Shown: in pieces, positions 319 to 27,181 of the stretch
Position numbering within the stretch: position 1 is the first letter of the stretch
Layout of the letters: every line of letters starts with the position of its first letter
DNA from: Nitrospinota bacterium
GTDB taxonomy: Bacteria; Nitrospinota_A; UBA7883; JACRLM01
NCBI GenBank assembly: GCA_015231995.1
Contig: JADGAO010000008.1
Coordinates: 1 to 28,695 of the forward strand
Reading direction: 5' to 3'
Length of the DNA: 28,695 bases
The notes under the pieces: model-generated
Told to the model about the DNA's origin: nothing
What the model saw: only the letters and a program-made list of their open reading frames with translations
Database searches by the model: none
Made by a program: the position numbers and the translations under genes

Positions 319-1278
319 TCAATAAAGCCAGCAGGCCGTTTCCGTCTCTTTCCCCACTTTCTTCAGCTCCGGTATTTTCACACGGCATACATCCATAACT
401 TTCGGGCAACGTGGATGGAACGCGCATCCCGGCGGGGTGTCCATAAGGCTCGGCACCACGCCTTTTATCTCGCGTAGCCGCCCGTCGCCTCTGCGTCTGC
501 TGGTTACGGAATCCAGCAGACCCTGTGTGTATGGGTGCTTGGGATTGGCGAATATCTCGCGGACAGGCGCGGTCTCGGCGACTCGTCCCGCATACATCAC
601 CACCACACGCTCGCACATCTGCGCTACGACCCCAAGGTCGTGGGTTATCAGAATCACCGACATCGAAAATTTATCTTTAAGCTCCGCCAATAGCTCCAGT
701 ATCTGAGCCTGTATCGTAACGTCGAGCGCGGTCGTAGGCTCGTCGGCCAGGAGCAGGGCAGGGCTTAACGATAACGCCATCGCGATCATCGCCCGCTGGC
801 GCATCCCGCCGGAGAGCCTGTGCGGATAGTCGGCCACCTTTTGCTCCGGCGAGGAGATGTGAACGGCGCGAAGAGCCTCGATGGCGCGATCCCACGCCTC
901 TTGCCTGCTTGCGCCGAAATGCAGGCGTATCCCCTCCGCTATCTGGTCGCCGATAGTGAAGACGGGGTTGAGCGCGGTCATCGGCTCTTGAAAGATCATG
1001 CCTATCTTTTTTCCCCGGACTTTCCTCATCTCCTCGTTGGAGAGCGTCAGCAGGTCTGCGCCTTCAAAGACTATTTTTCCGCCCGCTATTTTTCCCGGCG
1101 GCGGGACTAGCCGCAGTATGGAAAGGGCTGATAGAGTTTTGCCGCAACCCGATTCCCCGACAACGCCAAGCGTCTCCCCGGCCATTACGGAGTACGACAC
1201 CCCGTCAACCGCCTTGGCGACCCCGCCCGGCGCGGGGAAATGGACTTGCAGGTCTTGAATGTCTAATAGATTGGGCAT
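319..1278 (-). CDS. ABC transporter ATP-binding protein, oligopeptide/dipeptide (DppD/OppD) family
   Basis: 319-aa ORF. Walker A 'GESGCGKT'; signature/Walker B region '[27 protein letters not shown]'; conserved C-terminal oligopeptide-ABC domain. N-terminus '[11 protein letters not shown]' is typical of DppD. No partner permease or ATPase lies inside the window. Confidence 0.85.
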
Positions 1279-1649
1279 GGGAGAATGGTATATGAAGAGA
1301 GACGTTGGGGCAATACTTCCAAAGTAAACCTAGTCGCTGACTTCTTACCCTCTCCCGCGCTATATCGCGGGAGAGGGCAGGGTGAGGGTGTCAAACAGTG
1401 TTTTTCAAATCCCTCATCCTTTTCAAGTCCCTCAAGTCTTTCAAGTCGCTCAAATGCTCCAAGTCGCTCACCTGCCGTTTCCAGCGCAAATGCTTTGGGT
1501 TATCCTGCGTATCAGCATGTTGAATAAAGGAACATGATGAGAGACGAGATTCGGTTTCCCGTGGCCACCCACCACGGAACCATGACCCTGGAGCGTGGAC
1601 GGCCAGAACGCGGGCGAGCTTTGTTGAGCGTCCGCGCTGTCTTTTTTGC

Positions 1650-1780
1650 GCGTGCGACCATTGTCATTCTGAGGCGAAGCCGAAGAATCCATTTAGAAAA
1701 GAATTTGTTCTACTTTGATCCTTCAGTCGCAAAGCTCCTTCAGGATGACAACGGTCGCAGAGCCTCCCTCAGGATGACAA
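1650..1780. repeat. Dispersed imperfect-palindrome repeat, family A (MITE-like)
   Basis: 'cattgtcattctgaggcgaagccgaagaatccat..gttctactttgatccttc..cctcaggatgacaa' is the reverse complement of the units at 22905-23115 and 21115-21215. Confidence 0.6.
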
Positions 1781-1871
1781 TGGGTAAAAGGCGCCCCCCC
1801 CCGGGGACGACTACGGGGAAGCAAGGGTGATATGTTAGCTGTAGAAAGATGGCAACCTGTTAGGACGCGGA

Positions 1872-2618
1872 ATGATAACGATGAATGAACGATGGTTAAA
1901 CTATACGGCTGAATGCGTTGGAACAGCATTCATGGTCGCCTTCGGACTTTCCTCCGTGGCTCTCTTCTGGAGCTCTTTTTCGCCCATTCCAGCTTTGATG
2001 CCAGACCCGGGCATTCGACGGCTTTTAACAGGCGCGTTATTTGCCACGGGCGTTGTGGCGGTCATTTATTCGCCTGTGGGTCGCAAAACAGGCGCGCATA
2101 TAAATCCTTCGGTGACGATCTCACTATTGTTCCTGAAAAAAATTGCGGCGCCGGACGCCTTCGGGTATGTTATCGCGCAATGTGTCGGCGCAGTATTCGG
2201 CAGTGGAGCGGTCTATCTGGTGTTCAATGTTCTTTTGGGATGGCACGATGGGTTAATGAAAGGCGTAACCCTTCCCGACCCGACATATGGAGCAGGCGCC
2301 GCATTCGCGGGGGAGCTGATATCCACATTCATTCTCATGGCCGCCATATTGGGAATGGCGAATTTCGGCCATCACTCGCGCTATACGGGTCTCGTCGTTG
2401 GCGCGGTCGTCACGCTGGCGGTATGGATTGAAGCGCCGTTTTCAGGAACCAGCCTCAATGCGGCCCGTAGTTTCGGCCCGGCGTTATTGACGGGTGAATG
2501 GAACGCATTTTGGGTTTATGCGGTGGCTCCGCTCGCGGGAGCGTTGATAGCCGCCGTATCCTATCGCCTGATTTTCCGTGGAGCCGGCAAATGCCCTGCC
2601 GGCTGTCGAGGAGCTTGA
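1872..2618 (+). CDS. MIP-family channel protein (aquaporin/glycerol-facilitator-like) with non-canonical NPS / NAA signature motifs
   Basis: 248 aa. N-terminus 'AECVGTAFMVAFG' resembles AqpZ 'AEFFGTFWLVFGG'. First half-helix motif 'GAHINPSVT' (NPS in place of NPA). Second motif 'GTSLNAARSFGPA' (NAA in place of NPA). Hydrophobic six-helix pattern. Confidence 0.8.
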   Translation: MITMNERWLNYTAECVGTAFMVAFGLSSVALFWSSFSPIPALMPDPGIRRLLTGALFATGVVAVIYSPVGRKTGAHINPSVTISLLFLKKIAAPDAFGYVIAQCVGAVFGSGAVYLVFNVLLGWHDGLMKGVTLPDPTYGAGAAFAGELISTFILMAAILGMANFGHHSRYTGLVVGAVVTLAVWIEAPFSGTSLNAARSFGPALLTGEWNAFWVYAVAPLAGALIAAVSYRLIFRGAGKCPAGCRGA

Positions 2619-2632
2619 AATTGACGGCGCTA

Positions 2633-3445
2633 TCACGAACTCCGCTTCATCAGCTCGGCCCTCACCTCTTCGGCGATCAACTCCTCTACACTGGCGTTGA
2701 GGCCAGGGGCCGGGGTCAGCGGGGCTTCCGCGTTCGTGGGACACGCGGAAAATTTGCCGCAGGCGTTGCACGAGTTGCACATGTCGGTAATAATCTTTTT
2801 CTTGGGCCAGCCCATCTTCTCGCCGATGGCCTGCAGGTTCTCTATCTGCGCGGCGGTCAACGGCTTTATATTGCCAATCTGCCGGGCGTGGAAGGTTATC
2901 TCCGCCACATGCTCCATCCGCTCCAGCGTGTTGTATGCGGCGAACACGTCCGTCCCCACCGTGACGGAGCCGTGACGGGCAAGTATCACCGCGTCGAAAT
3001 CCTTGATATGGCTCCTGACGGACTCGGCGACGTCAACCGTCGTAGGCGCGGCGTATTCGGCGGTTGGTATGGAGCCGAGCGTGAAGATGACCTCCGGCAG
3101 AAGGCATTTGGCAAGCGACACCCCAGCCAGCGAGAACGCCACGCACATCGTCGGATGCGCGTGGACGACCGAGTTTACGTCGGGCCGTTCGCGGTAGCAG
3201 GTCAGATGCAGGACCATCTCGGTGGACGGATTTCGCGAGCCTGCGATAAGTCTGCCGTCCATGTCCACCACGATAACGTCACGTTCGGACATGTAACCTT
3301 TGTGTATGCCCGTGGGGGTTATGAGGATTTTGTCGCGGGAGAGGCGCACGGAGACGTTGCCGTCCGTGCTGGATATCCATCCGCGATTGTGTATGCGTTT
3401 GCACACTTCAACGATGTCGCGCCTGCTTTGAGCTTCCGATTTCAT
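2633..3445 (-). CDS. Class II aldolase/adducin-family protein (L-fuculose-phosphate aldolase-like) with C-terminal Cys cluster and putative encapsulation peptide; BMC cargo
   Basis: 270 aa. 'GWISSTDGNVSVR..ILITPTG..HLTCYRERPDVNSVVHAHP' matches the class II aldolase fold including the metal-binding His region. C-terminal extension 'CNSCNACGKFSACP' is followed by a Pro/Ala linker and the amphipathic helix 'SVEELIAEEVRAELMKR'. It is the last gene of the BMC operon, overlapping by one stop/start with the BMC-P gene. Confidence 0.8.
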   Translation of the reverse strand: MKSEAQSRRDIVEVCKRIHNRGWISSTDGNVSVRLSRDKILITPTGIHKGYMSERDVIVVDMDGRLIAGSRNPSTEMVLHLTCYRERPDVNSVVHAHPTMCVAFSLAGVSLAKCLLPEVIFTLGSIPTAEYAAPTTVDVAESVRSHIKDFDAVILARHGSVTVGTDVFAAYNTLERMEHVAEITFHARQIGNIKPLTAAQIENLQAIGEKMGWPKKKIITDMCNSCNACGKFSACPTNAEAPLTPAPGLNASVEELIAEEVRAELMKRSS

Positions 3446-3448
3446 CTT

Positions 3449-3721
3449 CTACGCCTCCAGATCGACACTGTCCACGATCCCCTCGATAACCGAGTGGACG
3501 GGCGCGTTGTTATCCATAAAAAGCTGTCGCGCCGCGTTGCCTTCCACTGCAACCAGCACGACATCACCCGGCCCGGCCTGCGCGAAATCCACCGCCAGGA
3601 AGGTCTGCCCGTCGTCTTTCAGGTTTTCGTCGAGCGGCTGGACGATCATTATTTTGTGTCCGCGATAGACATCGTGTTGCACCGTGGACTGCACGTTGCC
3701 AACAACTCTCGCAAGTTTCAT
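3449..3721 (-). CDS. BMC vertex (pentamer) protein, EutN/CcmL/PduN family (BMC-P)
   Basis: 90 aa; 'MKLARVVGNVQSTVQHDVYRGHKIMIVQPLD..GPGDVVLVAVEGNAARQ' is the canonical EutN/CcmL pattern. Its start overlaps the upstream gene's stop (ATGA at 3718-3721). Confidence 0.85.
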   Translation of the reverse strand: MKLARVVGNVQSTVQHDVYRGHKIMIVQPLDENLKDDGQTFLAVDFAQAGPGDVVLVAVEGNAARQLFMDNNAPVHSVIEGIVDSVDLEA

Positions 3722-3990
3722 GGCGCCTCCCTGTTCACGATATCCACGATGCCGACGATGCCAGCGTCCACCGGGGTGAACGTCTCGTCGAGCGCCAGCG
3801 TGGCCTCTCTGCCAGCGACGTATGTAACGATGTCGCCTGGGCCGGACTGGATCGGGTCGGTTGCGATGATGGGCGAGCCTTTGGGTTTGCCGGCGTCGTC
3901 TATCGGCTGGATGATGAGTAGTTTCACCCCTTCGAGCGCCTCGTGTTTCACCGTCGCCACCACTCGTCCTATTACCTTGGCAAGATGCAT
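3718..3990 (-). CDS. BMC vertex (pentamer) protein, EutN/CcmL/PduN family (BMC-P)
   Basis: 90 aa; 'MHLAKVIGRVVATVKHEALEGVKLLIIQPID..GPGDIVTYVAGREA'. Second of three BMC-P paralogues. Confidence 0.85.
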   Translation of the reverse strand: MHLAKVIGRVVATVKHEALEGVKLLIIQPIDDAGKPKGSPIIATDPIQSGPGDIVTYVAGREATLALDETFTPVDAGIVGIVDIVNREAP

Positions 3991-3994
3991 GTCG

Positions 3995-4234
3995 TCAATC
4001 TCTATAATAGTATTTCATCGCTGTCCGGGGTGTTCTTCACCCCGGACTCTTATCCACGTGAACCTAACTTCGTCCCCCTTACCAAGGGGGACCGCCACGA
4101 AGTGGCGAGGGGGTTTAACCTCCCGGCGCTTTGCGCCACCCCCCTTATCAGGGGGGCTACCCCTCCGGCGCGATTACGCTCCACCTTCCCGATTTTCGGG
4201 GAGGAAAAAGAACACCCCGCCACGCGAAACCCGC
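3995..4234. repeat. GC-rich multi-hairpin intergenic element (family B), inverted partner of 7298-7545
   Basis: Contains 'cccccttaccaaggggga', 'ccccccttatcagggggg', 'ccggggtgttcttcaccccgg' and 'cccgattttcgggg'. The reverse complement aligns at roughly 75% by eye with 7340-7500 ('gcgccgggaggttaaaccccctcgcc..' vs 'gcgccggaggggttaggaaacccccgctcgc..'; 'cccctgataagggg' in both). Confidence 0.5.
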
Positions 4235-4792
4235 TTACAGCAGTTTGAGGTTTATGTCTTCATGCGGGTTGGGGATGATCTCTCTGCACACGAGCGTCCC
4301 TGCGGATTTGATTATCGCCACACCCGCCTCGACCGCCGCTTCCAGCTCGTTAAGCGGCCCGGTCATCGTGTAAAAAGATTTGCCGCCAAGCCCGTTGGCC
4401 ATGCGGACTTCGATCAGGCTAACGCCAGCCGCTTTCACCGCCGCGTCTGCGGAAAGTATCACAGAGGCCACGGTAAACGTCTCCACCACGCCGAGCGCAT
4501 CCATTTTGGGAACCACAGCGCAAGCCTGCATCGCAGGGATAAGCTGATGGCTCGCGTATGGCAGGAAAAGCTCGTCCACCACCATCTCCCCGCCGGTCGC
4601 CACGCCGATCCGATAAGACTCTTCCACCGCCGCCGTTTCCCCGGCGATGAGGATCATATATTTGCCGGGGCAAACAGTGCGCGCGTCCAGCAGGCGCACC
4701 GGGGCTTTCTTTACCATGTCGTCGGCGGTCTTCACCCCGCGCGCGATCGAGCGCAGTTCGATAAGCGCCACAGCTGGTTCTTTGAGGGTCAT
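4235..4792 (-). CDS. BMC-T shell protein with tandem BMC domains, PduT-like (resembles Haliangium BMC-T1); candidate Fe-S site
   Basis: 185 aa. Two BMC-domain cores: 'ALIELRSIARGVKTADDMVKKAPV' and 'ALGVVETFTVASVILSADAAVKAAGVSLIEV'. C-terminal 'IIPNPHEDI' parallels PduT 'VIPRPHEAM'. A Cys precedes the PGK motif ('TVCPGKYMIL') at the position of the PduT cluster ligand. Confidence 0.8.
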   Translation of the reverse strand: MTLKEPAVALIELRSIARGVKTADDMVKKAPVRLLDARTVCPGKYMILIAGETAAVEESYRIGVATGGEMVVDELFLPYASHQLIPAMQACAVVPKMDALGVVETFTVASVILSADAAVKAAGVSLIEVRMANGLGGKSFYTMTGPLNELEAAVEAGVAIIKSAGTLVCREIIPNPHEDINLKLL

Positions 4793-4901
4793 ATGGTTGA
4801 CAAAGCCTCGAATTGCCTATAAGATATATTCAGATTTGAAGGGATGAATGTCGGCCTCAGCGCCGTGTGAATTCCGGGTTTCCCGGAGGTTCCTAGTCCC
4901 T

Positions 4902-5960
4902 TCATTTTTTGTTTCCCCAAACATAATCGTTGTTTGTATAAACACGGTTTTCTCCGGGGCGTATCTCCTCAATGCGATCAACTTTGCCCCAGATATACTC
5001 GATATACCGCTCCTCGCCCCTTTCATAATATCTTTGCAACGCCCACAAACAGTAATCCACAACTTGCAACATAGGGTTTTGTGAAGGGTAGGTGCCGTTC
5101 AGCTGAATAAGTTTGCCTGAACGAACATGTTCACGTTGCATCTCATTAAGACGCAACATGTGTTTGACCTGATCCATAATTATCTTATGGTGCTTTAGAT
5201 TGCGAGATACTTCTTTCTGTTCACCTTCCAGGTCATCAAGAATGATCGTTACGTTCATATTCCCCGTCGCGCAATCTTCGGGTTGTATAAGTTGAAGCTT
5301 ATTGTCAATATCAGCCATTCTTTTCCTGATATCTTTTAATAGTTCATCGCCGAAGGCGAGGTGTGTTTCAACAGTATTGAAAATCTTTTCCCGCTCGTCA
5401 TAAAGAGCTTTCTCAAGAGCTTTTGTTTTTTCCCGGTTTCCCCGGAAAGCAAACAAAATATCTAGCCAATGGTTGGGATAATCTTTATTCAGCAAAAACG
5501 GCTTGAACAACTCGCGCGTCATTAATTCATAAGATTCGCTCTCTTTGTATCGGTAATTTTTATCCTCCAAATTCCTCGTCCGCACTGCGGCAAGCGTATC
5601 CTCCTTGTTTATTATGACGGCGGAAAACTTAATATCGAGTTTTTCAATAAACCTGTAAACCTTCCATCGAGCTTCGGGTATTTCATCTTTTGCGTGGAAT
5701 AACATTGCGGTCTTATTCGCCGAAGCCTGCATGGAAGGAACTTTCTTGAAATAGGGATCGCTACACAATTCTGATCTCAAGGAATCCAGTTCTTTTTCTA
5801 TGTGATTAGTTTCTTCGGCCGAGACAAAACCTAAAATGAAATATTTCGAGCACCCATCCGTTCCAATGATAACGTCACCGTGACGATTAAAAATAGCGCC
5901 ATCGCCGGTCTCATCCACGAAACAGCGCAATACTTTTATTGGATGTGGTGAAGAACTCAT
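4902..5960 (-). CDS. DUF3800-like protein (putative RNase H-fold/DExx-motif enzyme), compositionally foreign (low GC)
   Basis: 352 aa. N-terminal 'LRCFVDETGDG' resembles the DUF3800 'yiDESG' motif; C-terminal 'LQVVDYCLWAL' resembles its 'LQxaD' motif (family assignment from memory). GC is about 40% against about 60% in flanking genes. ATG at 5958-5960 overlaps the TGA of the PduS-like gene (ATGA). Confidence 0.5.
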   Translation of the reverse strand: MSSSPHPIKVLRCFVDETGDGAIFNRHGDVIIGTDGCSKYFILGFVSAEETNHIEKELDSLRSELCSDPYFKKVPSMQASANKTAMLFHAKDEIPEARWKVYRFIEKLDIKFSAVIINKEDTLAAVRTRNLEDKNYRYKESESYELMTRELFKPFLLNKDYPNHWLDILFAFRGNREKTKALEKALYDEREKIFNTVETHLAFGDELLKDIRKRMADIDNKLQLIQPEDCATGNMNVTIILDDLEGEQKEVSRNLKHHKIIMDQVKHMLRLNEMQREHVRSGKLIQLNGTYPSQNPMLQVVDYCLWALQRYYERGEERYIEYIWGKVDRIEEIRPGENRVYTNNDYVWGNKK

Positions 5961-7297
5961 TTCACTTGCCCGCTAATCCCGATGTGGCTTGTACTAATAG
6001 CGGTCACCACGCCGGAAATCGAGGCGTGGTATCTCGCGCCAAGTTTGCCCTCCGGTATCTCGCCGATCAACTGGCCCTTCGTCACTTTTTCACCCTGTTT
6101 CACAACGGGGAGCGCTGTAGCTCCGATATGCTGATTCAAAGGTATCCGCACGGACGATACAGGCCACGGCGCAGGGTCGAACGGCGCCTTAACGTCGTAC
6201 TCGCTAAGTCCGAGCCGTCTCATCAGCTTATCCGCCGGGACGCCACGGAACGGGCGGTAAGAATCTTGCGTCAGGTCTGCTCGCCTGTGCGGGTTTTTGA
6301 TTCCGGCCTCTCTCATCCGGCGTTTGAACTCCCGGTATATCACGCGGGGAGAGAGGAACATCGGACACGCCCACAGGTCACACAATCCGCACTCGCAACA
6401 GAGCCACGCCGACGTTATCGTGTCCGAATCCAGGTCGCGGTCATAGTTGATGACGCGCATTATTTTGTGAGGCTCCAGCCTGTGTCCCAAAAGGTAACGA
6501 GGGCAGAAATCGGTGCAGTACCGGCACACTTCGCAGGCGGATTTGCCGATGCGTATCTCCGTGGAGAGCGGACGCGCCATACGCATGACGTGGCTGTGGT
6601 CTTTCGGCAAAACGAAAAGCCCGCCGGTGGTCTTGGTAACGACCTCGTTCATATCCTCCGTGACACGTCCCATCATCGGGCCGTTGACCAGGATGACGTA
6701 GTCGTCTATCTTCACACCAAGGCGGGGGATGATTTCGCCAAACGCGGTTCCCACAGGGATGAACGCCACCTTCGGGTTGTCCATAGCCCCGCCAAGCGTT
6801 ACAATCCGCTCCGTCACCGGTTTGCCGTTCACGGCTTCTGCGATGTTCACCATCGTGCCCACGTTGATAACGACCACGCCGACATCCAGCGGGATGCCGC
6901 CTTCCGGCACGGCGCGGCCTGTGGCCTCGAATACAAGATAATGTTCATCGCCCGCAGGGTACACGTTGTCCAGCTCCAGCACGCTTACGCCATGCTTGCC
7001 AGCCTGATCCCGAAACGACTTCACCGCGTGGTCATATTTTTGTTTCACGCCGATGACGCCTTTAACCTCGGAGCCTGTCCGTCCCGAAATCTCATCTACG
7101 ATTTTTCTAAGCGTCGCCACGATATCGCCAGCGCGCGTTTCCATCAGATGAAGGTCGCCGCACATGAGCGGCTCGCATTCCGCGCCGTTGACGATGACAG
7201 TGTTGACGGCGGAGGCGAGTTTTATGTGAGTCGGGAACCCCGCGCCACCCGCGCCAATTACCCCGGCCTGCCGCGCTAAATCGGCTACAGTGGGCAT
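5957..7297 (-). CDS. RnfC/NuoF-like Fe-S flavoprotein, PduS-like (BMC-associated oxidoreductase)
   Basis: 446 aa. N-terminal Gly-rich nucleotide-binding motif 'VIGAGGAGFPTHIKL' (complex I 51K / RnfC). Two Cys clusters 'CEVCRYCTDFCP' and 'CCECGLCDLWACP' (2x[4Fe-4S]). C-terminal barrel-sandwich-like 'VKQGEKVTKGQLIGEI..ISGVVTAI'. Lies inside the BMC operon. Confidence 0.75.
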   Translation of the reverse strand: MPTVADLARQAGVIGAGGAGFPTHIKLASAVNTVIVNGAECEPLMCGDLHLMETRAGDIVATLRKIVDEISGRTGSEVKGVIGVKQKYDHAVKSFRDQAGKHGVSVLELDNVYPAGDEHYLVFEATGRAVPEGGIPLDVGVVVINVGTMVNIAEAVNGKPVTERIVTLGGAMDNPKVAFIPVGTAFGEIIPRLGVKIDDYVILVNGPMMGRVTEDMNEVVTKTTGGLFVLPKDHSHVMRMARPLSTEIRIGKSACEVCRYCTDFCPRYLLGHRLEPHKIMRVINYDRDLDSDTITSAWLCCECGLCDLWACPMFLSPRVIYREFKRRMREAGIKNPHRRADLTQDSYRPFRGVPADKLMRRLGLSEYDVKAPFDPAPWPVSSVRIPLNQHIGATALPVVKQGEKVTKGQLIGEIPEGKLGARYHASISGVVTAISTSHIGISGQVK

Positions 7298-7545
7298 AAT
7301 GCGGGATTGGTGTTGTTTGTCAAAGATCGGGTCGCGCCTCTTTTTGCCCCCGCCCCTTGCGGGAGAGAGCTTGCCCTGAGTCTTCCGAAGGGGTGGCTCC
7401 CCTGATAAGGGGAGGTGACGCGTCTTCGCGCCGGAGGGGTTAGGAAACCCCCGCTCGCTTCGCTCGCCGCCCCCTTGTCAGGGGGCCTAAGAACGTTACG
7501 CAAAGCCTCCCTAGGCACGGGGGACAAATGGAAGATTGGCATAAT
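7298..7545. repeat. GC-rich multi-hairpin intergenic element (family B), inverted partner of 3995-4234
   Basis: 'ctcccctgataaggggag', 'cccccttgtcaggggg', 'gcgccggaggggttaggaaaccccc'. Alignment with the reverse complement of 3995-4234 is given under that feature. Confidence 0.5.
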
Positions 7546-9003
7546 TCAAATGATCCTGAATCTGTCTTTTAACGTGCAACGGCGTTCCCGGGTGAAGTTT
7601 ATTGCCGTCGTCAGGCCCTCTCCGGTGGGGCTTGCTATCGTGAAAGATGTGTAACCCTCGCCGCCCCATCCGAGGCCGGCGTAGCTTGGGCCGTTCTTTA
7701 TGAAAAGGGAGGTGTTTATCGCACGCGCCATTTTCGACAGGTTGTCCACGTTCGTCGAATGCATCACTGCGGTGTGGCCGAAACCGTGTTCCACCTTTCT
7801 GGCGAGCTCGATACCTTCGTCCACATCGGCGACGCGCACGAGCGGCAACACAGGCGTCAACTGCTCCATTATGACGAGCGGGTTGGTTTTCTCCGCTTCG
7901 AATACGATGAGGCGCACATCCTCGGATGTCTCCACGCCGATGGCGCGTAATATCTTGCCCGCGTCTTTGCCCACCCAGCTTTTGTTCATCACCCCATGGT
8001 CGCCGGGGCCTTGCGGGGCGCGTTCTATTATGAGCTTCTCAAGTTTTTTCACCTGATGCGGGTTAAGCTCGTATGCGCCCGATTTTTTCATTTCGCGCTT
8101 AAGCGCGTCGGCGACCTTGTCCACGCAGATAAGGACTTTTTCCACTATGCACACTATATTGTTGTCGAACGAGGCTCCGTCAACCACATGCTTGGCCGCT
8201 TCGGCGATGTTGGCGGTTTCGTCAACGACGACGGGAGGGTTGCCCGGCCCTGCCGCGATTACTTTCTTGCCGGAGTTCATCGCCGCTTTCACGACGGCCG
8301 GCCCTCCGGTGACGACAAGCAGGCGTATGTCGGGATGGCGCATAAGCTCCCCGGCGCTCTCCACAGTGGGGCTTGCGATTTCCGTAAGCAGGTTCGCCGG
8401 GCCGCCAGCAGAGATTATCGCTTCGTTGAGCAGGTTGATCATGTACGAGGTGACGTTCTTCGCCGTCGGATGGGCGTTGAAGACGACCGCGTTGCCGCCT
8501 GCGATCATCCCAATGGCGTTGCACAGCACCGTCTCCGTAGGGTTCGTGCAAGGCGTGATGGAGCCGATGACCCCGTATGGCGCGCGTTCCATCAGCGCTA
8601 TGCCGTCGTCGCCTGTGAAGGCGCGAGGTTCCAGAATCTCGATTCCCGGCGTTTTTTCGACAGCGAGCGTGTTTTTGAGTATTTTATCGGCTACTCGGCC
8701 CAATCCTGTCTCCTCGACGGCCATCTTCGACAGGTTAGGTATCTCGCGCCGCACGGCTTCACGCATGGCGTTAATCATCAGCCTGCGTTCCGCCAGCGGG
8801 TATGAATCCAGCGAGATGAACGCCGCTTTTGCAGAAGCCACGGCCTCGTTGACAGTCGCGTAACTGCCGATACGTTTTCCGTTACTCGTGGGAATGGTTT
8901 GAGCTGGTAAAACCGGGGCCAGTTTCGCTCCGGCTTTGGAGGCGGAAAGCCTCGCCGCGACCCGTTCCACGATGCCCGCTATCTGGTCTTTGTCCAGCGT
9001 CAT
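7546..9003 (-). CDS. Aldehyde dehydrogenase (CoA-acylating, PduP/EutE-like) with N-terminal encapsulation peptide
   Basis: 485 aa Aldedh-family fold ('GSYATVNEAVASAKAAF..', 'ASPTGEG', conserved NAD-binding Gly-rich segments). N-terminal amphipathic helix 'DQIAGIVERVAARL' plus an Ala/Pro/Ser linker precede the catalytic domain. RBS 'GGAGG' sits 8 nt upstream. Confidence 0.85.
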   Translation of the reverse strand: MTLDKDQIAGIVERVAARLSASKAGAKLAPVLPAQTIPTSNGKRIGSYATVNEAVASAKAAFISLDSYPLAERRLMINAMREAVRREIPNLSKMAVEETGLGRVADKILKNTLAVEKTPGIEILEPRAFTGDDGIALMERAPYGVIGSITPCTNPTETVLCNAIGMIAGGNAVVFNAHPTAKNVTSYMINLLNEAIISAGGPANLLTEIASPTVESAGELMRHPDIRLLVVTGGPAVVKAAMNSGKKVIAAGPGNPPVVVDETANIAEAAKHVVDGASFDNNIVCIVEKVLICVDKVADALKREMKKSGAYELNPHQVKKLEKLIIERAPQGPGDHGVMNKSWVGKDAGKILRAIGVETSEDVRLIVFEAEKTNPLVIMEQLTPVLPLVRVADVDEGIELARKVEHGFGHTAVMHSTNVDNLSKMARAINTSLFIKNGPSYAGLGWGGEGYTSFTIASPTGEGLTTAINFTRERRCTLKDRFRII

Positions 9004-9018
9004 GAATCAAGCCTCCGG

Positions 9019-9333
9019 TCAGACATCCGCCGTTTTCGCAGACGCATACTTTGTGTAAACGGTCTTGTCGTCAACGTCCCATGTGTCCACGATGCCCATG
9101 ACGACAGCGTCCACAGGCTTGCCGTTGGTGATATCCGTCTGCCGCGCGGACGAGCCTGTGGCGTACAGCACCACCTCGCCAAGCCCCGCGCCAACCGAAT
9201 CCGCCGCCACGACGTAACCTTTGCCCACCTCGCCTGTGACATCCACGTTGCGCACGAGAAGCAGTTTTAACCCCTCAAGCGATTCCGCCTTGCGGGTCGA
9301 GACAACCGTCCCGGCCACTTTTCCGAACAACAT
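9019..9333 (-). CDS. BMC vertex (pentamer) protein, EutN/CcmL/PduN family (BMC-P)
   Basis: ATG at 9331-9333 gives '[49 protein letters not shown]'. The longer ORF-track N-terminus (to 9423) is not family-like and overlaps the BMC-H gene. Confidence 0.8.
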
Positions 9334-9337
9334 GGCT

Positions 9338-9631
9338 TCACTCCGCCGCGATGGCTTTTCTGCCCAGCGGAAGCGCAAGGTCGATGTTGCTGTGCGGCCT
9401 GGGGATGACATGGACGGAGACAAGCTCGCCCACTTTCTCCGCCGCGCGCGAACCGGCCTCGGTTGCCGCCTTCACAGCCGCAACGTCGCCGCGCACGATG
9501 GCGGTGACATACCCTCCGCCGATTTTCTCGTATCCCACCAGCTCGACCTTCGCCGCTTTCAGCATGGCGTCGGAGGCTTCGACCATGCCGACAAAACCCT
9601 TGGTCTCGATCATTCCCAATGCGTCTGACAT
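9338..9631 (-). CDS. BMC-H hexameric shell protein (PduA/EutM/CcmK family)
   Basis: ATG at 9629-9631 gives '[63 protein letters not shown]', a near-consensus BMC domain. The upstream TTG in the ORF track is unlikely to be the start. Confidence 0.9.
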
Positions 9632-9655
9632 CTTTGACAATCTCCAAAAAAGACG

Positions 9656-10291
9656 TTATTCAGCTTTTCCCTTTTTCGCTGCTTTTCCCGTGACGCTCTC
9701 CAGAGCTTTCACGGCGGCGTCTGCGGCGGAGTCGATCTCCGCTTCAGAGCCTGACATGTAAAGCCGTCCGAACGCGCCGAACGGCCGCACTTCCACTAGT
9801 TTTACGTTGGCCGCTTTCTCCGCCTCGTTCGCGGCGAAAATGGCGTAACCGGCAGGCTCTGTCTCCAGTATGAAAAGCGACTCGCCCGGCAAAATCATGG
9901 AGCCGCTTTTGTTCCTGTTGATGAGCTGGCACTGGTAAGCCTCCATGCTCCGTATGATCTGGTTGGCGACGATGGTGGGCTTTATCCTGTCGGCCTCTGT
10001 GACGCCCAGATGGTCGAGTATCGCCCTCCCGGCGCTTATAACCTCGCCTTTGTCCATGTCGTGCACTTCAAGAAGGCCGTAAGCGCGTTCGACAATCTGC
10101 ACGGCTGGCTGGACTTTCGTGGCTTTCAGAGCCACGTCGGTCACGCGGTTGATGGCCAACCCCGGAGCAATCTCCACAAACAGGGACGCAACCCCCGGCA
10201 CGGGCAGGAAACCTTTGGCGGTGGAGCCTATGTAGGAGGCCAGCTGATCCTGGAGGCTGTCGAGGAATATGAAAGTCCTAAGTGTGATCAT
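9656..10291 (-). CDS. BMC-T shell protein with tandem BMC domains, CcmP/CsoS1D-like (resembles Haliangium BMC-T2)
   Basis: Start '[71 protein letters not shown]' and second domain '[47 protein letters not shown]' closely parallel, from memory, the Haliangium ochraceum BMC-T2 sequence ('[62 protein letters not shown]'). ATG at 10289-10291. Confidence 0.75.
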
Positions 10292-10337
10292 TTTTTCAAA
10301 TACCCCTGTCAATTCCCGTTGTATGTTTCTTGCGCGA

Positions 10338-11153
10338 TCAATACTGCTTCGCTGTTATCACGTCTTCGATCTTCCGTATGCTGGTGAGCGCCCTCTCGCC
10401 GCGCCGCAACCCCAACGCCACATGCAGAAGGTCTATGATGCTCGCCTGCGCGATTCTGGAGGCCAAAGCCTCGCTCCGAAACCTCGTCTCCTTGCTCGAT
10501 GTCACCAACGTCACGTCCGACGCTTTCGCAAGCGGCGACAACAGGCTGTTCGTCACCGCAACGGCGCGAGCGCCCGCGTTGCGCCCGACCCGCACCGTCT
10601 CCACCGGGTCCTTGGTGGAGCCGGAATGGCTTATCGCCAATATCGCGTCGCCTTTTTTAAGCAGGGCCGCCTCCATCATCTGCAGGTGTCCGTCTGTCTG
10701 CAAAGTCACCGGAAGCCCAAGCCGCATAAGCTTCGTGTACGCGTCGAACGCGATGGGAGCCGACGTGCCTACGCCGATAATAAGAGTTCTACCCGCATTG
10801 TCCAGTATGCCGATGGCCCGCTCCACGGAACGTGGGTCTATCACGGCGAGCGTGTCTTTTAATGTGCTGATGTTGGCTTCGAACACCTTGCCCGCCAGCG
10901 CGGCCACGTCGTCTTTTTCGGTGATAGCCTCGTGGATCGCGCCTGCGATGGGTGTTACAAGCTCACGGGCCAGGGCTATCTTAAGGTCGGCGAAACCGAG
11001 GAAATTGGCCGCCCTGCAAAACCGTATGACCGTGGCCTCGGATACACCCGCTTCCCGCGCCACCTCGCCGACAGACATGCCGATGGCGTTCTCCGCGTTT
11101 TTCAATATGAACTCGCCCACCTTGCGCTCCGCCGGTAGAAGGGACGGCAACAT
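10338..11153 (-). CDS. RpiR/MurR-family transcriptional regulator (HTH_6 + SIS phosphosugar-binding domain)
   Basis: From ATG at 11151-11153: '[45 protein letters not shown]' is the canonical RpiR N-terminal HTH. SIS domain '[35 protein letters not shown]'. Co-oriented and 25 bp upstream of the first shell gene. Confidence 0.8.
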
Positions 11154-11467
11154 GCCGCTCACTTTCCCGGTGGCGCCCGGCCCGTGGGCGCGGCTGACTG
11201 CTCCCCTTGTCTTTGGCCTACGCTGTGATCTTCCGGTTGCTATGGTCATATCCATTCCACTTTCCATGAGGCTCTTCGCAGTCTCGATGATTATAGTCCG
11301 CGCCATTCCGCGTGTCAAGTAAAACTACATATCAATTAAGTATCCATGAAGTAAAATTTCATAGAACGCATGGTTGCAAGGTGGCCGCTGACCAGTTTTG
11401 ATTTTAGGGCGTTGCGGGGGCAATCTTGGGGGGCGTGGAAGAAATGTCCGGCGCTGAGTGGGACGCC
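11154..11467. promoter_or_regulatory. Large intergenic/5' region upstream of the BMC regulator and operon, AT-rich core with small inverted repeats
   Basis: The 11319-11380 stretch 'taaaactacatatcaattaagtatccatgaagtaaaatttcatagaacgcatgg' is markedly AT-rich in a GC-rich genome. It contains the IR 'atgaa-N7-ttcat' and the outer IR 'ccatg..catgg'. Likely promoter and operator region; no specific site is proven. Confidence 0.3.
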
Positions 11468-17724: not shown

Positions 17725-17935
17725 TTGTCATTCTTGTGCGCCCCTTGTCATTCTGAACGAGCGCAGTGAAGTGAAGAATCCATCGAAGGAACATTTTGTT
17801 CTACTTTGATCCTTCGGTTGCCGGAGGCTCCCTCAGGATGACAAAAACATTGTCATTCTGAGCCCTTCGCTTTGCTCAGGGTAAACTCCGCGAAGAATCC
17901 ATCAAAAAATTTTTACTCTACTTCGATCTTTAACC
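17725..17935. repeat. Dispersed repeat family A (about two units plus the 'gtaaactccgcgaagaatccatc' module)
   Basis: 'gtcattctgaacgagcgcagtgaagtgaagaatccatc..gttctactttgatccttcgg..ggctccctcaggatgacaa..gtcattctgagcccttcgctttgctcagggtaaactccgcgaagaatccatc' matches units at 1650-1780, 21108-21275 and 22866-23115. Confidence 0.6.
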
Positions 17936-17996: not shown

Positions 17997-19445
17997 TCAA
18001 TCGGCGTTCGGATTGTCGCTTACAACGGGTTTTGGGGCGCCTGAAACATCGGCGGACGCGATTTCCCTGCCCATATCCGGTTTTATGAAAACTGGCTTTA
18101 TATGTTTGTCCACATCCGGCTTGTTGTTGACGCAACGCAGTTTTTTGAACAGGAAGTCGAACTTGGCCTCCAGCTCCCCCCGCAGTTTGACCTTCGTCTC
18201 TTCGGGCATCGTCCACAGCTCTTCTTTGACCAGGCCAAAGCCTTTTTTGCGGGTCTTGTAGATGAACTGCTCCTCGGTCTGTCCTGATTTCCACTCGTCC
18301 TTGAAATTTTCCTTCAACAACGAATACATCTTCTCCCTCATAGCCTTTGGCAGATTGGGCGAATCGTAAATCATGTTCTGGAACCCCGTGGCCAGATGAA
18401 CCTCAGATGTCGTGGCTTCCGGGAACCTGTGGAACGCTTCGTCGGGCAGGGTGGAGGCGCCATGCTGAACCGCGCCTGAAAGACCATACTTCTCCCTGGC
18501 CGTTTTGCTCATTTTCTCCAGCGTATCGAAATCCAGTTTCACCTGGGCCACAGTGCCGTCCGGCAGTGGGATACCGCCGTGCGACGTGCCTGTCTGCACC
18601 GACACTTTGCTGATGCCCTTGAGATTGGCGCCATGTTTCTTGAGGCTGGCGTTATACCCGTCCATATAAGCGACCAGTTCCTCGACGGTGGAGTTTTTCT
18701 CCCCGACTTCGCCGATTTCACCGCCGACAGATACGGTCAATCCGGCAGGCTCCTGACTGCGGACATGGGCGGTAAGCTCCGCGCCGACTTCAAAATTAGC
18801 CCTCTGTTGCTCGTAAATTGTAGGCTTGGAGAGGTCAACGAGCGTGGAAGTGTCTATGTCTATGTTATAGAACCCGGCGGCAAGGGCCTCAGTGATGAGT
18901 TTTTTAAGGCCCTCTATCTCCTTGGCGGGATCGGCCTTGAATTTCTTGACGTTCACCTGGAAATGGTCGCCCTGCACAAACACTGGGCCACTCCAGCCTT
19001 CCTTGATTCCGGCGGCGAGCATGACGACGGCGTATTCGGCGGGACGCTGGAAAGTGTAATCAATCTCCGACTTTGCGATTTCGAATATGAACGGGCCGGA
19101 GCCGTTTTTGATTGCGGCGTGGAAAAGGGCGCGGGCCACGTCGTATGTCATTCCGCGGATGTTGACGGCGGGAACGGTGTAACCTTTCACCTCGCCTCTG
19201 CCCATCGCCTCGTACAACCCCTCTATGGAGGCGCAGTAAACTCCCAAATCCAGCCCGGCGGACTTTATCGCCCAACGCGCCGTTCCCCGTATTGCGGGCG
19301 TCTGTCCGAAAACGGCGTTATAAATGAGCAGGTCAATGGCCTTCTCGCGGAACGCCGCGCGATCGGACACTTTCACGGCGCCGTTGTCAACCTTGGCGCA
19401 GTTGGATATAGCGGCCAGAAGCTCTTTTTCGGTTTGAACTTTCAT
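17997..19445 (-). CDS. Class II fructose/tagatose-bisphosphate aldolase-family protein (long form, ~480 aa)
   Basis: Family motifs 'VQGDHF' (DH), 'VGGEIGEVGEK' (ELGxxGG-like), 'VQTGTSHGG' and 'VQHGASTLP' (HGgSG). The ~100-aa C-terminal extension is unusual for the family. Confidence 0.65.
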   Translation of the reverse strand: MKVQTEKELLAAISNCAKVDNGAVKVSDRAAFREKAIDLLIYNAVFGQTPAIRGTARWAIKSAGLDLGVYCASIEGLYEAMGRGEVKGYTVPAVNIRGMTYDVARALFHAAIKNGSGPFIFEIAKSEIDYTFQRPAEYAVVMLAAGIKEGWSGPVFVQGDHFQVNVKKFKADPAKEIEGLKKLITEALAAGFYNIDIDTSTLVDLSKPTIYEQQRANFEVGAELTAHVRSQEPAGLTVSVGGEIGEVGEKNSTVEELVAYMDGYNASLKKHGANLKGISKVSVQTGTSHGGIPLPDGTVAQVKLDFDTLEKMSKTAREKYGLSGAVQHGASTLPDEAFHRFPEATTSEVHLATGFQNMIYDSPNLPKAMREKMYSLLKENFKDEWKSGQTEEQFIYKTRKKGFGLVKEELWTMPEETKVKLRGELEAKFDFLFKKLRCVNNKPDVDKHIKPVFIKPDMGREIASADVSGAPKPVVSDNPNAD

Positions 19446-19617
19446 TGTCGCTCCCTCACCATTTTTGAAATGGGTTCACATGCAAGATCGCCCGTTCCCC
19501 CCTTTGGGAGAGGGCCGCCGCGATTACAACAAGACACACCAGCCATGTATTGCGCCAATACGATATCACAAGAGGGCGCCCCACGCCAGCCTGTCGATAA
19601 CCAAACGATTTCCATAT

Positions 19618-19675
19618 TTTGTCATCCTGAGGGAGCTCTAGCGACCGATCAAAGTATAATTGAACATTCTATCGT
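19618..19675. repeat. Half-unit of repeat family A followed by GC hairpin 'gcgggcg ggac gcccgc'
   Basis: 'ttgtcatcctgagggagctctagcgaccgatcaaagta' is the left arm of the family A unit. Confidence 0.5.
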
Positions 19676-19944: not shown

Positions 19945-19975
19945 TTGGCGTTGAAAAACGTCATTTGGTTATAAT
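19945..19975 (+). promoter_or_regulatory. Candidate sigma70 promoter for lipoprotein gene 20001-20516
   Basis: Consensus -10 'tataat' at 19970-19975. Possible -35 'ttggcg' (19 nt spacer) or 'ttgaaa' (13 nt spacer). RBS 'GGGAGG' at 19985-19990. Confidence 0.35.
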
Positions 19976-20000
19976 GTTAATTTTGGGAGGATGTTTCGTA

Positions 20001-20516
20001 ATGAACAAGGTTTTTCTAAGGTACGCGTTGGCCGTCATGTTGGTGGTGACGCCTGCGATGATAGCCGCATGTGGTTCTTCATCTTCGTCTACGCCTAGTA
20101 GCTCCAGCACTAGCGGCGACTCTTCCACTAGCGGTGGCACGACCACGAGCGGCGGAACGACAACGAGCGGCGGCACCAGCGGTGACACTTCCACGAGCGG
20201 TGGAACGACCACCAGCGGCGGAACATCCACCAGCGGTGGCACGACCGGCACACCGGCCCCCGCCACTTGCACAGAGGGCGCGGCTGACGCTTATTACGGA
20301 ACGACTGTTACTCCGAATACGGCGATCACCATCACTGAAACCAGCGGCACGGTCATCACCACAACCAGCGGCGCCGACGGCAAGTTCTGCGTGACGGGCA
20401 ACCCGGCTGGCGGTTATGGTTCATCCACCGCCGCCGGCGCGATGGTCACCAGGCCGACCAACGGCTCCTGCGCCACTGGCGGGGCGTTGTGTCACAGCCT
20501 TCTGCCCCTGCGGTAG
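20001..20516 (+). CDS. Lipoprotein with Ser/Thr/Gly-rich repeat linker and C-terminal beta-sandwich-like (CarboxypepD_reg-like) domain; haem-less paralogue of the downstream gene
   Basis: ATG at 20001 preceded by GGAGG. Signal peptide plus lipobox 'MIAAC'. Linker '(TSGGTTTSGG)n'. C-terminal domain 'CTEGAADAYYGTTV..ITETSGTVITTTSGADGKFCVTGNPAGGYG..GSCATGGALCH' aligns with the downstream paralogue, but CTGCH is replaced by CTEGA. Confidence 0.6.
   Translation: MNKVFLRYALAVMLVVTPAMIAACGSSSSSTPSSSSTSGDSSTSGGTTTSGGTTTSGGTSGDTSTSGGTTTSGGTSTSGGTTGTPAPATCTEGAADAYYGTTVTPNTAITITETSGTVITTTSGADGKFCVTGNPAGGYGSSTAAGAMVTRPTNGSCATGGALCHSLLPLR
20075..20250 (+). repeat. Imperfect tandem nucleotide repeats (about 24-30 bp) encoding the (TSGGTTTSGG)n linker
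   Basis: Reiterated 'acgagcggcggaacgacaacgagcggcggcaccagcggtgac..acgagcggtggaacgaccaccagcggcgga'. Could undergo slippage or length variation. Confidence 0.5.
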
Positions 20517-21090: not shown

Positions 21091-21107
21091 GGCCACTGCA
21101 AAGGATC

Positions 21108-21275
21108 CAGGATGACAATGTTCTTGTCATCCTGAGGGAGGCTCTGCGACCGAAGGATCAAAGTAGAATAGAATATTCTTTTTGATAGATTCTTCGCGTT
21201 GCTCAGAATGACAAACTCTGATGGATTCTTCGCGGAGTTTACCCTGAGTCCTCGAAGGGCTCGCAATGACAATCG
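21108..21275. repeat. Dispersed repeat family A (one full palindromic unit plus the 'gatggattcttcgcggagtttaccctgag' module)
   Basis: 'ttgtcatcctgagggaggctctgcgaccgaaggatcaaagtagaatagaatattctttttgatagattcttcgcgttgctcagaatgacaa'. Confidence 0.6.
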
Positions 21276-22865: not shown

Positions 22866-23115
22866 CGTCATCCTGAGGGGGCTTCTCTTTGTCATTATGA
22901 GGGAGCTTTTTTTGTCATCCTGAGGGAGCCTTAGCGACCGAAGGATCAAAGTAGAACAGGATATTCTATTTGATAGATTCTTCGGCTTCGCCTCAGAATG
23001 ACAATACCACCGCTCAGAATGACAATGTTTTTTGTCATCCTGAGGGAGCCTTAGCGACCGAAGGATCAAAGTAGAATAAAGCATTCTTTTGATGGATTCT
23101 TCACTTCGTTCAGAA
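22866..23115. repeat. Two tandem full units (plus a partial) of palindromic repeat family A; the 3' unit supplies the stop codon of the heptosyltransferase gene
   Basis: Units at ~22905-23010 and ~23025-23115: 'ttgtcatcctgagggagccttagcgaccgaaggatcaaagtagaa(N5)attct(n)tttgat(r)gattcttc(N3-4)tcg(NN)tcagaatgacaat'. Left and right arms are imperfect reverse complements, giving a ~90-nt hairpin potential. Confidence 0.65.
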
Positions 23116-26374: not shown

Positions 26375-26435
26375 CAATATTGTCATTCTGAGGCGAAGCC
26401 GAAGAATCCATCTAAAAAACAATTTGTTCTACCCG
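26375..26435. repeat. Half-unit of repeat family A
   Basis: 'cattctgaggcgaagccgaagaatccatctaaaaaacaatttgttctac' is near-identical to 1660-1710. Confidence 0.5.
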
Positions 26436-26443
26436 GTTCATCT

Positions 26444-27181
26444 TCACTCCCTCACCTTGACGACCCTGGCTGGCGACCCGACGGCCACAACCCTCTGCGG
26501 CAGGCTTGCGGTGACAATCGCCCCGGCCCCGATTACCGCGCTCTCGCCGATATTAACGCCGTCCAACACAGTGACCTTTGCGCCAAGCCAGCAGTCGTTG
26601 GCTATCTCTATCCCTTCGCTCGTCCATCCCTGGTCGAGGATCGCCTCGTCCACATCGTCGAAGTTGTGCCTCGTGGCGAACAGGGAGACGTAAGGGCCAA
26701 GTAAAGACTTCTCCCCTATCACTATCCTGGAGTTGGAGGAGATGTTGCAGTAGGTGGAGATGTTGGCGTAGTCCTTGAGGATGATGTCGCCTTCCTTGCA
26801 ACTGAAAATCGTGCCACGCCCCACATAGCAGTTTTCGCCGATTATTATCCCTGTGTTGTCGGAGCCTTTGGCGTCCAGCAAAACGCCGTCGTCAATGATG
26901 GAGCCGTTCCCGATTTCTATTTTCAGCGGGTGGCGAAGCGACACATCCATTCCGAAGACCACGCCGCGTCCAACCCTGCCGATGATCATGGGATAAAAAA
27001 TCTTCCGCAACACTATTCCCAACGCGCCGGGTATCCGGGAAAAAAGGAGGATGACAAGTTCGAACTTTATCAGAAACCAGATGGAGCGCGTTCCCAATAT
27101 GAGATCCTGATACTGCTCAAGCCTCGATTTGCCCTTCCCGCCGTACTCGTGCTGAATCTGGATGTTTATCTTATCGCTCAT
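26444..27181 (-). CDS. Hexapeptide-repeat (left-handed beta-helix) acetyl/acyltransferase, WcaF/NeuD-like
   Basis: 245 aa. Repeated [LIV]G-x4 hexapeptides ('IGNGSIIDDGVLLDAKG..IIIGENCYVGRGTIF..IGEKSLLGPYVSL..IANDCWLGAKVTVLDGVNIGESAVIGAGAIV'). N-terminal hydrophobic segment. Confidence 0.7.
   Translation of the reverse strand: MSDKINIQIQHEYGGKGKSRLEQYQDLILGTRSIWFLIKFELVILLFSRIPGALGIVLRKIFYPMIIGRVGRGVVFGMDVSLRHPLKIEIGNGSIIDDGVLLDAKGSDNTGIIIGENCYVGRGTIFSCKEGDIILKDYANISTYCNISSNSRIVIGEKSLLGPYVSLFATRHNFDDVDEAILDQGWTSEGIEIANDCWLGAKVTVLDGVNIGESAVIGAGAIVTASLPQRVVAVGSPARVVKVRE

Follow-up and report, generated by a model that had tools for sequence, protein, structure and literature searches.

A predicted catabolic microcompartment operon of the SPU5 or Haliangium type II kind in a Nitrospinota bacterium

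A bacterial microcompartment (BMC) operon of eleven genes occupies positions 2633-11318, on the minus strand, of the DNA analysed here (the window), which is the whole of a 28,695-nt contig from a Nitrospinota bacterium (JADGAO010000008.1, assembly GCA_015231995.1). It codes for an RpiR-family regulator, one BMC-H, two BMC-T and three BMC-P shell proteins, a CoA-acylating aldehyde dehydrogenase (AldDH), a PduS homologue, a class II aldolase-fold enzyme presumed to be the signature enzyme, and a DUF3800 protein. By the written descriptions of the types, the locus is best placed in the SPU5 type or, failing that, regarded as a Haliangium ochraceum (HO) type II locus that would have gained a PduS/PduT pair. 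We assign a probability of about 0.7 to the reading that it specifies a catabolic metabolosome of this kind, in which an aldehyde released by the aldolase would be oxidised by AldDH, with the electrons leaving through the PduS homologue and a BMC-T pore. The original prediction, made from the bare sequence, described a locus resembling the HO type, with aldolase and aldehyde dehydrogenase cargo; it is partly supported, being largely right but overstating both the likeness to HO and the novelty.

The microcompartment locus is real: one BMC-H, two BMC-T and three BMC-P genes score above the Pfam gathering threshold and lie clustered, solved shell proteins are the top PDB matches of the window's shell genes, and the BMC, EutN_CcmL, Aldedh and Aldolase_II profile hidden Markov models match where the original prediction had placed them, all eleven genes being co-directional as it had stated. 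The double-stacking BMC-T (Tdp, CsoS1D/CcmP-like, 211 aa; 9656-10291, within an open reading frame (ORF) of 9656-10312) carries the BMC domain and resembles HO-5816 most closely (1.2e-94, 73% identity across 204 gap-free residues), followed by CcmP (7e-71) and CsoS1D (1e-59); the Pfam CsoS1D_N domain is present in its homologues. HO-5815 is the closest natural PDB match (3.5e-46) of the BMC-H hexamer protein (97 aa; 9338-9631, ORF 9338-9640; Pfam BMC 1e-30), and an H. ochraceum BMC-P in 5V74 is that of pentamer protein P1 (3.7e-23), a 104-aa EutN_CcmL protein encoded at 9019-9333, with its ATG at 9333, 4 nt after the BMC-H stop. The other two EutN_CcmL pentamer proteins, P2 (3718-3990, 1.5e-28) and P3 (3449-3721, 1.8e-23), are of 90 aa each. 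The BMC-P genes form a true triplet, since their products are only 36-43% identical to one another (P1/P2 40%, P2/P3 43%, P1/P3 36%).

The second BMC-T (4235-4792, two BMC domains) is a single-layer protein of the PduT type (Ts, also called BMC-T^SE) with a cysteine in the pore. It matches PduT-like 3NWG best (2e-44, 43% identity), then PduT (1e-36), 5DII (4e-30), presumably an engineered Cys variant of HO-5812, and HO-5812 itself (1e-28). Its pore motif is CPGKY; among the matches listed, xC[PA]GK[YF] is found in 120 of 120 homologues and CPGK[YF] in 119. The proposal that both BMC-T proteins are Haliangium-like thus holds for Tdp, whereas Ts belongs with PduT.

AldDH (7546-9003) is of the EutE/PduP type: besides the Pfam Aldedh domain, it scores 665 bits with NCBIfam PRK15398 (cut-off 403), has the PduP of R. 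palustris (5JFL, 9e-133) and 4C3S (5e-131) among its PDB matches, and shows FDNNIVC285 around the catalytic cysteine. The N-terminus contains an amphipathic helix with a hydrophobic-moment peak at residues 6-16 (DQIAGIVERVA), joined by a linker of about 30 aa to the domain, which begins at residue 47. The helix and linker look encapsulation-peptide-like, in agreement with the peptide predicted for this enzyme. The PduS homologue (5957-7297; Pfam Complex1_51K 1e-36, Fer4_17, RnfC_N), an Fe-S flavoprotein of the MNdh type (NADH:acceptor), was likewise recognised correctly together with the PduT-like BMC-T. It contains GAGGAGFP, a motif for NADH/FMN, and two Cys clusters, CxxCxxCxxxCP at 255 and another at 300-311, and in relatives it is always encoded beside a PduT-type BMC-T.

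The last gene of the operon (2633-3445; Pfam Aldolase_II 8e-50) codes for a metal-dependent, class II aldolase-fold enzyme. Glu76 and the metal ligands His95, His97 and His158 are invariant in 101 homologues; Glu76 aligns to the 'SSE' of DrdA, whose catalytic residue it is (PMC6079011). In the AlphaFold2 (AF2) model (pLDDT 87.7) the fold is followed by a linker without order and then by an amphipathic helix at the C-terminus (251-269), which is encapsulation-peptide-like. The best PDB sequence matches are DrdA (2e-25), YgbL (3e-23) and FucA (ca. 1e-22), at 27-30% identity each, and in Foldseek the same three proteins score alike, with TM 0.86-0.89 and YgbL best.

The enzyme also has four cysteines, C114, C223, C226 and C229, invariant across the 101 homologues. 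The tail motif CxxCxxC occurs in 120 of 120 aldolase homologues among the matches listed; C114 and CxxCxxC are found together in all six subfamily aldolases examined, and both are missing from all 14 more distant BMC-associated aldolases, while one Planctomycetota protein has CxxCxxC and a proline at 114. C114 lies in the active-site loop, two residues ahead of the position of FucA Tyr113, which suggests that the four cysteines may form a metal or Fe-S site where the active site opens, possibly at a subunit interface. The text of the 2021 microcompartment catalogue (PMC8217296), as far as consulted, makes no mention of this signature.

A profile scan of species-representative genomes with the aldolase gave 48 loci, and gene order was then determined by tblastn with the window proteins (loci are designated by L numbers). 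The order RpiR, Tdp, BMC-H, BMC-P, AldDH, PduS, Ts, BMC-P, BMC-P, aldolase, ten genes in all, is found in all Nitrospinota loci of sufficient length (L002, L005, L006, L007, L008, L014, L016, L018, L019, L022 and L036), and precomputed gene calls give the same order in L050, L052, L055 and L056, referred to below as the four relatives. At least 15 independent Nitrospinota loci from metagenome-assembled genomes share it. RpiR heads every complete related locus, and each complete Nitrospinota locus ends with the aldolase. Compared with the closest relative, L055, every BMC gene shows a dN/dS of 0.02-0.13 and is therefore under strong purifying selection; such values, and the recurrence of the order, mean that the arrangement did not arise by chance. 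The Eiseniibacteriota locus L054 and locus L028 keep the order without PduS and Ts and have a second Tdp after the aldolase, and L054 has the same RpiR. An extra gene for a 176-aa PNPOx_N-like protein (FMN-binding fold) was seen in L057 (1952-2482), between the first pentamer gene and the AldDH gene.

The search for further enzymes was negative. Diol dehydratase, ethanolamine ammonia-lyase and glycyl-radical enzyme were not found by Pfam on the 28.7-kb contig or in the relatives' flanks, and the locus is thus, as predicted, not of the PDU, EUT or GRM type. No alcohol dehydrogenase, phosphotransacylase (PTAC), DeoC-type aldolase (DERA) or RpiB is encoded in the 10-kb flanks of the four relatives, and the ORFs scanned on the contig contain no RpiB or DeoC domain (pfam02502, pfam01791).

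The mechanism proposed for the organelle is drawn from homology at each step. The operon would be transcribed as one unit from a sigma-70 promoter, with the SIS domain of RpiR sensing a phosphosugar. The shell would have BMC-H facets and vertices capped by the three BMC-P paralogues; bulky metabolites, phosphorylated or of the CoA type, would pass through the large gated pore of Tdp, and the PduT-type BMC-T would hold a [4Fe-4S] cluster in its pore. The aldolase, recruited via its C-terminal helix, would split a ketose-1-phosphate into dihydroxyacetone phosphate (DHAP) and a short aldehyde, a reaction proposed because the class II catalytic residues are intact and because the enzyme is the sole candidate source of an aldehyde; the retention of the catalytic Glu and of the three metal-binding His is consistent with this chemistry. 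AldDH, recruited via its N-terminal helix, would then convert the aldehyde, NAD+ and CoA into acyl-CoA and NADH. As no alcohol dehydrogenase is encoded, the regeneration of NAD+ would fall to the PduS homologue, from which electrons would pass through two [4Fe-4S] clusters and the cluster of the BMC-T pore to a cytosolic acceptor. Electron export by an MNdh/BMC-T^SE module has been proposed with biochemical support by Sutter et al. 2024 (PMC11275729), for loci of just this kind, which have an AldDh but no alcohol dehydrogenase. As no PTAC is encoded either, acyl-CoA would have to leave and CoA to enter across the shell, the gated Tdp pore being the obvious route.

Several points weigh against this reading. 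The aldolase is no nearer to DrdA or FucA than to YgbL, a decarboxylase, and passes no curated model; the position of FucA Tyr113 is taken by an invariant Leu, making the aldehyde pocket unlike those of known enzymes. The encoded genes leave CoA recycling unexplained, and no sugar kinase, isomerase or transporter is conserved near the operon. The encapsulation peptides are read from sequence, and homology is what carries the mechanism of the SPU5 or HO type II kind as a whole.

The substrate, which the original prediction had hoped to obtain from the affinity of the aldolase, is not predictable in this way. Assignment by curated models was abandoned because no NCBIfam equivalog passes, the scores and cut-offs (bits) being 136/250 for OtnC, 125/250 for FucA_Meth, 99/400 for FucA TIGR01086, 98/137 for MtnB, 56/170 for RhaD and 64/389 for AraD, and 105/300 for the haloarchaeal ribulose-1-phosphate aldolase; equivalogs do not pass for the regulator, PduS or the BMC-T proteins either. 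Structure was abandoned because of the tie of YgbL, FucA and DrdA in Foldseek, and neighbouring genes because the flanks of the Nitrospinota loci are unlike one another and a channel gene found next to the window operon is not kept. The aldolase of Minicystis rosea is an orphan beside a TRAP transporter, and the other Myxococcota flanks are housekeeping genes (glutamine synthetase, acyl-CoA dehydrogenase, a pyridoxal phosphate enzyme).

Since the aldolase stands equally far from DrdA, FucA and YgbL and no equivalog passes, any substrate is a guess. Our first choice, a tentative one, is a deoxy-pentulose-1-phosphate, such as 5-deoxy-D-ribulose-1-phosphate, which would yield acetaldehyde and then acetyl-CoA. 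The leaning towards acetaldehyde comes from DrdA being the top PDB sequence match and, by the catalogue's descriptions (PMC8217296), from the occurrence of the class II aldolase and of DERA, which forms acetaldehyde, in overlapping subsets of SPU5 loci (5 and 4 of ca. 8) and from the HO/SPU5 AldDh neighbouring other SPU types on the EUT1 branch. These arguments favour acetaldehyde by little, and both lactaldehyde and glycolaldehyde are live alternatives.

It is rather unlikely that the same machine would use L-fuculose-1-phosphate or L-rhamnulose-1-phosphate and produce L-lactaldehyde, as in the PVM, PVM-like and GRM5 types. The aldolase has FucA among its closest matches in both sequence and fold, and the best solved relatives of AldDH include the BMC enzymes 5JFL and 4C3S, the latter of which we take to come from a fucose/rhamnose-using clostridial BMC. 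However, the FucA equivalog models, with cut-offs of 250-400 bits, give only 99-125, and the enzyme has another residue in place of the Tyr113 that FucA uses in catalysis. The loci of the four relatives and their surroundings also lack genes for an isomerase or kinase of fucose or rhamnose, for lactaldehyde reductase and for PTAC. In favour of this substrate, the pfam00596 aldolases of PVM and GRM5 are described as processing fuculose-1-phosphate and rhamnulose-1-phosphate (PMC8217296).

D-ribulose-1-phosphate or D-xylulose-1-phosphate from nucleoside or pentose breakdown, giving glycolaldehyde and glycolyl-CoA in the same machine, is a comparably unlikely choice. For HO, the catalogue puts forward nucleic-acid catabolism as a speculation, based on the kinship of HO with SPU types (PMC8217296, type descriptions), and the matches include the haloarchaeal model for ribulose-1-phosphate aldolase, but at about a third of its cut-off (105 and 300 bits), and no nucleoside phosphorylase or pentose-phosphate enzyme is linked to the operon.

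The four cysteines suggest a further reading, also rather unlikely in our estimation: an uncharacterised class II aldolase subfamily with a Cys4 metal or Fe-S site and a substrate other than those known. If so, the compact, self-regulated Nitrospinota operon would offer the clearest way into the function of HO/SPU5 organelles. One possibility under it would be disposal of 5-deoxy-pentose within the shell, in the manner of a DHAP shunt, with electrons leaving via the PduS/PduT relay.

It is improbable that the locus belongs to a true SPU organelle with its DERA signature enzyme encoded elsewhere and the class II aldolase as an accessory acting on triose phosphates. To our knowledge, the synthesis of fructose bisphosphate is not an activity of the PF00596 fold. 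In each complete Nitrospinota locus the aldolase gene stands last, and its product has an encapsulation-peptide-like tail; neither pfam01791 nor pfam02502 is found on the 28.7-kb contig or in the 10-kb flanks of the four relatives. In favour of this reading, Dwyer 2024 (PMC11585597) proposes DERA (pfam01791) as the universal SPU signature and treats the class II aldolase as an accessory, and the catalogue describes a distal pfam01791 gene with an encapsulation-peptide-like extension in some HO genomes (PMC8217296, type descriptions).

Still less probable is that the aldolase-fold protein is a YgbL/OtnC-like decarboxylase or epimerase, or a redox enzyme using the four cysteines. Its top NCBIfam match is indeed 3-oxo-tetronate-4-phosphate decarboxylase, its top Foldseek match is YgbL, and C114 and CxxCxxC are invariant; the 136 bits are nevertheless far under the 250-bit cut-off, and a metabolosome with an acylating AldDH needs an aldehyde source, for which no other candidate is encoded.

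The metabolosome gene cluster of the window is interrupted by three secondary insertions that lie outside the machine, namely the DUF3800 gene and two hairpin-filled gaps. The DUF3800 gene (4902-5960; Pfam DUF3800 1e-9, PADLOC DUF3800_VII (retron type VII) 8e-9) is the eleventh gene, which the original prediction counted without naming; the repeats in the gaps were missed as well. The start of the DUF3800 gene overlaps the PduS stop, and its G+C content is 0.42 against ca. 0.58-0.60 in its neighbours, and 0.45 against 0.70-0.77 at third codon positions (GC3). The empty site is preserved in the sister locus L056 (ca. 6004-6025), where PduS runs straight into the BMC-T gene; by comparison, the insertion is of ca. 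1.17 kb and has replaced the last ca. 12 codons of PduS, with the frame kept open. The same site is occupied in L055 (6018-7049), L057 (5302-6384), L058 (1522-2565) and L059 (1808-2782), and this is the position in the operon of every close homologue (324-360 aa, identity of at least 67%) whose contig is long enough; shorter, distant relatives reside in mobile or defence islands, e.g., L060. Published work likens the DUF3800 domain to RNase H2 and assigns DE and QxxD motifs to it. Both motifs are invariant in this group, and RNase HII (1EKE) is the sole meaningful fold match of the AF2 model (pLDDT 89), which has a helical hairpin insert of ca. 100 residues. The gene is not an ancestral part of the operon: it was horizontally acquired and has been retained and fixed in a Nitrospinota sub-clade, because its GC3 is low and yet its dN/dS is 0.24.

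The other two insertions are G+C-rich, REP-like blocks of hairpin repeats, one in the gap between the AldDH and PduS genes (block 1, 7298-7545, fold z-score -3.1) and one in that between Ts and P2 (block 2, 3991-4234, z-score -4.8). Both are built from CCCCCTGAYAAGGGGG-type hairpins and fold much more stably than shuffled sequence does; they have ca. 60 nt in common in inverted orientation (block 2 with 7385-7440). They are specific to this genome and missing even from the closest relatives: the AldDH-PduS gap is of 4 nt in L050 and L055, and the Ts-P2 gap of 10-15 nt in L050, L055 and L056. A regulatory RNA in the two gaps was considered and dropped, as the whole contig has no Rfam match and the gaps are hairpin-repeat arrays. 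Decay of the locus through the three insertions, which are missing from most relatives and are accompanied by a weak terminator-like hairpin just past the BMC-T stop, is scarcely credible when all eleven ORFs are intact, dN/dS of the BMC genes is 0.02-0.13, and the insertions are intergenic but for the swapped PduS codons.

The operon is read from 11318 to 2633. A candidate sigma-70-type promoter, TTGACA-17-TATAAT with 12 of 12 matches, lies at 11290-11318 upstream of the regulator gene (10338-11249; Pfam HTH_6 5e-18, SIS 1e-17). It lies within the long ORF called mechanically for RpiR (10338-11318), whose TTG 'start' is part of the TTGACA hexamer. The true start is most likely the ATG at 11249, 11255 or 11264, because conservation with homologues begins ca. 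20 codons upstream of M56 (11153), the position at which the original prediction had ended the locus. The HexR, MurR and AlsR models (NCBIfam) each score under their cut-offs with the protein. The tight packing, said to be often by ATGA overlaps, was overestimated: such 4-nt overlaps occur at two of ten junctions (PduS/DUF3800 and P2/P3), and the gaps elsewhere comprise six of 3-46 nt, one of 109 nt and the two of 244 and 248 nt described above.

Convergent with the aldolase gene, and 14 nt from its stop, is a gene for a MIP-family channel (1872-2618, plus strand; Pfam MIP 7e-42), in a position that recalls PduF beside pdu operons. By tblastn it has a counterpart only in L001, from a second assembly of this organism, and it is absent 3' of the aldolase in the four relatives. 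A lone DppD/OppD-like ABC ATPase gene (ABC_tran and oligo_HPY), with no permease partner visible, is found 3' of the aldolase in three lineages (window 319-1278, minus strand; L004 2827-3792; L050 14535-15497); its recurrence looks like plain synteny.

Assembly GCA_015234085.1 is 99.8% identical to the window over 1405-9270. Past ca. 1405 (ca. 7866 of L001), just beyond a cluster of repeats, the two assemblies part, the window continuing into the ABC ATPase gene and L001 into RimP/NusA, which points to a strain rearrangement or a mis-assembly at the repeats. A family of intergenic repeats is dispersed in both orientations over at least six sites (1660-1780, 17768-17904, 19617-19648, 21098-21272, 22909-23121 and 26378-26449); it comprises two related units, TTGTCATCCTGAGGGAGC...GCGACCGAAGGATC and ATTGTCATTCTGAGGCGAAGCCGAAGAATC, and has no Rfam match. 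Farther from the operon, a putative lipoprotein (19965-20516, plus strand; no Pfam match) contains a Thr/Ser/Gly-rich tandem repeat with an 18-nt period (20108-20246, TSGGTTTSGG...), and a 482-aa protein encoded upstream of gyrA (17997-19445, minus strand) matches class II fructose-bisphosphate aldolase weakly (Pfam 4e-16; NCBIfam far under the cut-offs) and is an atypical, long enzyme of that kind.

Among characterised class II enzymes, the window aldolase shares with DrdA, FucA and YgbL/OtnC the fold, the Glu and the three His ligands, and differs from them in having C114, CxxCxxC, the linker and the terminal helix. The PduS homologue and the Cys-pore BMC-T reproduce the MNdh/BMC-T^SE module, with AldDh present and an alcohol dehydrogenase absent; the difference is that in the window genome and its sub-clade the DUF3800 gene separates the two partners. 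In the PVM, PVM-like and GRM5 types, too, an encapsulated pfam00596 aldolase yields an aldehyde on which an acylating AldDh acts, but those systems have PTAC, acetate kinase, lactaldehyde reductase or a glycyl-radical enzyme, none of which is encoded in the window.

The types were compared through the written type descriptions of the catalogue of Sutter et al. 2021 (PMC8217296, Supplementary Data 2). Its main text and searchable supplements, some of these truncated, do not contain 'Nitrospin*', and literature searches returned no report of a Nitrospinota microcompartment, no match for the H. ochraceum locus tags and, for RpiR, microcompartment and aldolase together, only a 2014 taxonomy. Structural and engineering work on microcompartments relies mainly on the H. 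ochraceum shell as its model, yet the native function of HO/SPU5 organelles is still a puzzle; the catalogue text calls the HO function 'enigmatic', in keeping with the original prediction that the substrate of this type is not established. The operon described here unites a regulator, a shell, a presumed signature enzyme, AldDH and an NAD+-recycling module in one conserved unit, and is thus a small, testable system. It extends the organelle type to Nitrospinota, but both the type and its composition were already described and will not surprise specialists, so the novelty had been overrated.

In the catalogue descriptions (PMC8217296), HO comprises 41 loci with two Tdp and one Ts in the shell, the second (CcmP-like) Tdp being usually encoded in a satellite; HO type II has two extra pentamers and a pfam00596 aldolase inside the main locus, PduS/T are satellites in three genomes only, and the HO AldDh is closest to those of SPU5 and SPU7. 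The resemblance to HO put forward earlier stands for three shell proteins: BMC-H and P1 are closest to HO-5815 and an HO pentamer, and Tdp belongs to the HO-T2 clade, Hoch_5816 being labelled Tdp_apricot_S1Dlike in the catalogue tree. It does not extend to the second BMC-T. The HO Ts (HO-T1, Ts_auburn_HO) is cysteine-less and not linked to PduS, whereas the window Ts has a pore cysteine and an adjoining PduS, and there is no second Tdp on the 28.7-kb contig.

SPU5, as described there, comprises eight loci from Proteobacteria and one Chloroflexi. They lack pfam02502 and code for an AldDh bearing an N-terminal encapsulation peptide, one BMC-H, a triplet of BMC-P and a Ts that is associated with PduS and has a cysteine in its pore; five of the loci have a pfam00596 aldolase whose C-terminus bears an encapsulation peptide, four have DERA and four a CsoS1D-like Tdp. 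The window differs in lacking DERA, in coming from Nitrospinota and in being headed by RpiR, on which the SPU5 text is silent. It adds to a catalogued, functionally unsolved type and is not a new system; otherwise it matches the SPU5 description item by item, including the encapsulation-peptide-like termini of both enzymes and the absence of pfam02502.

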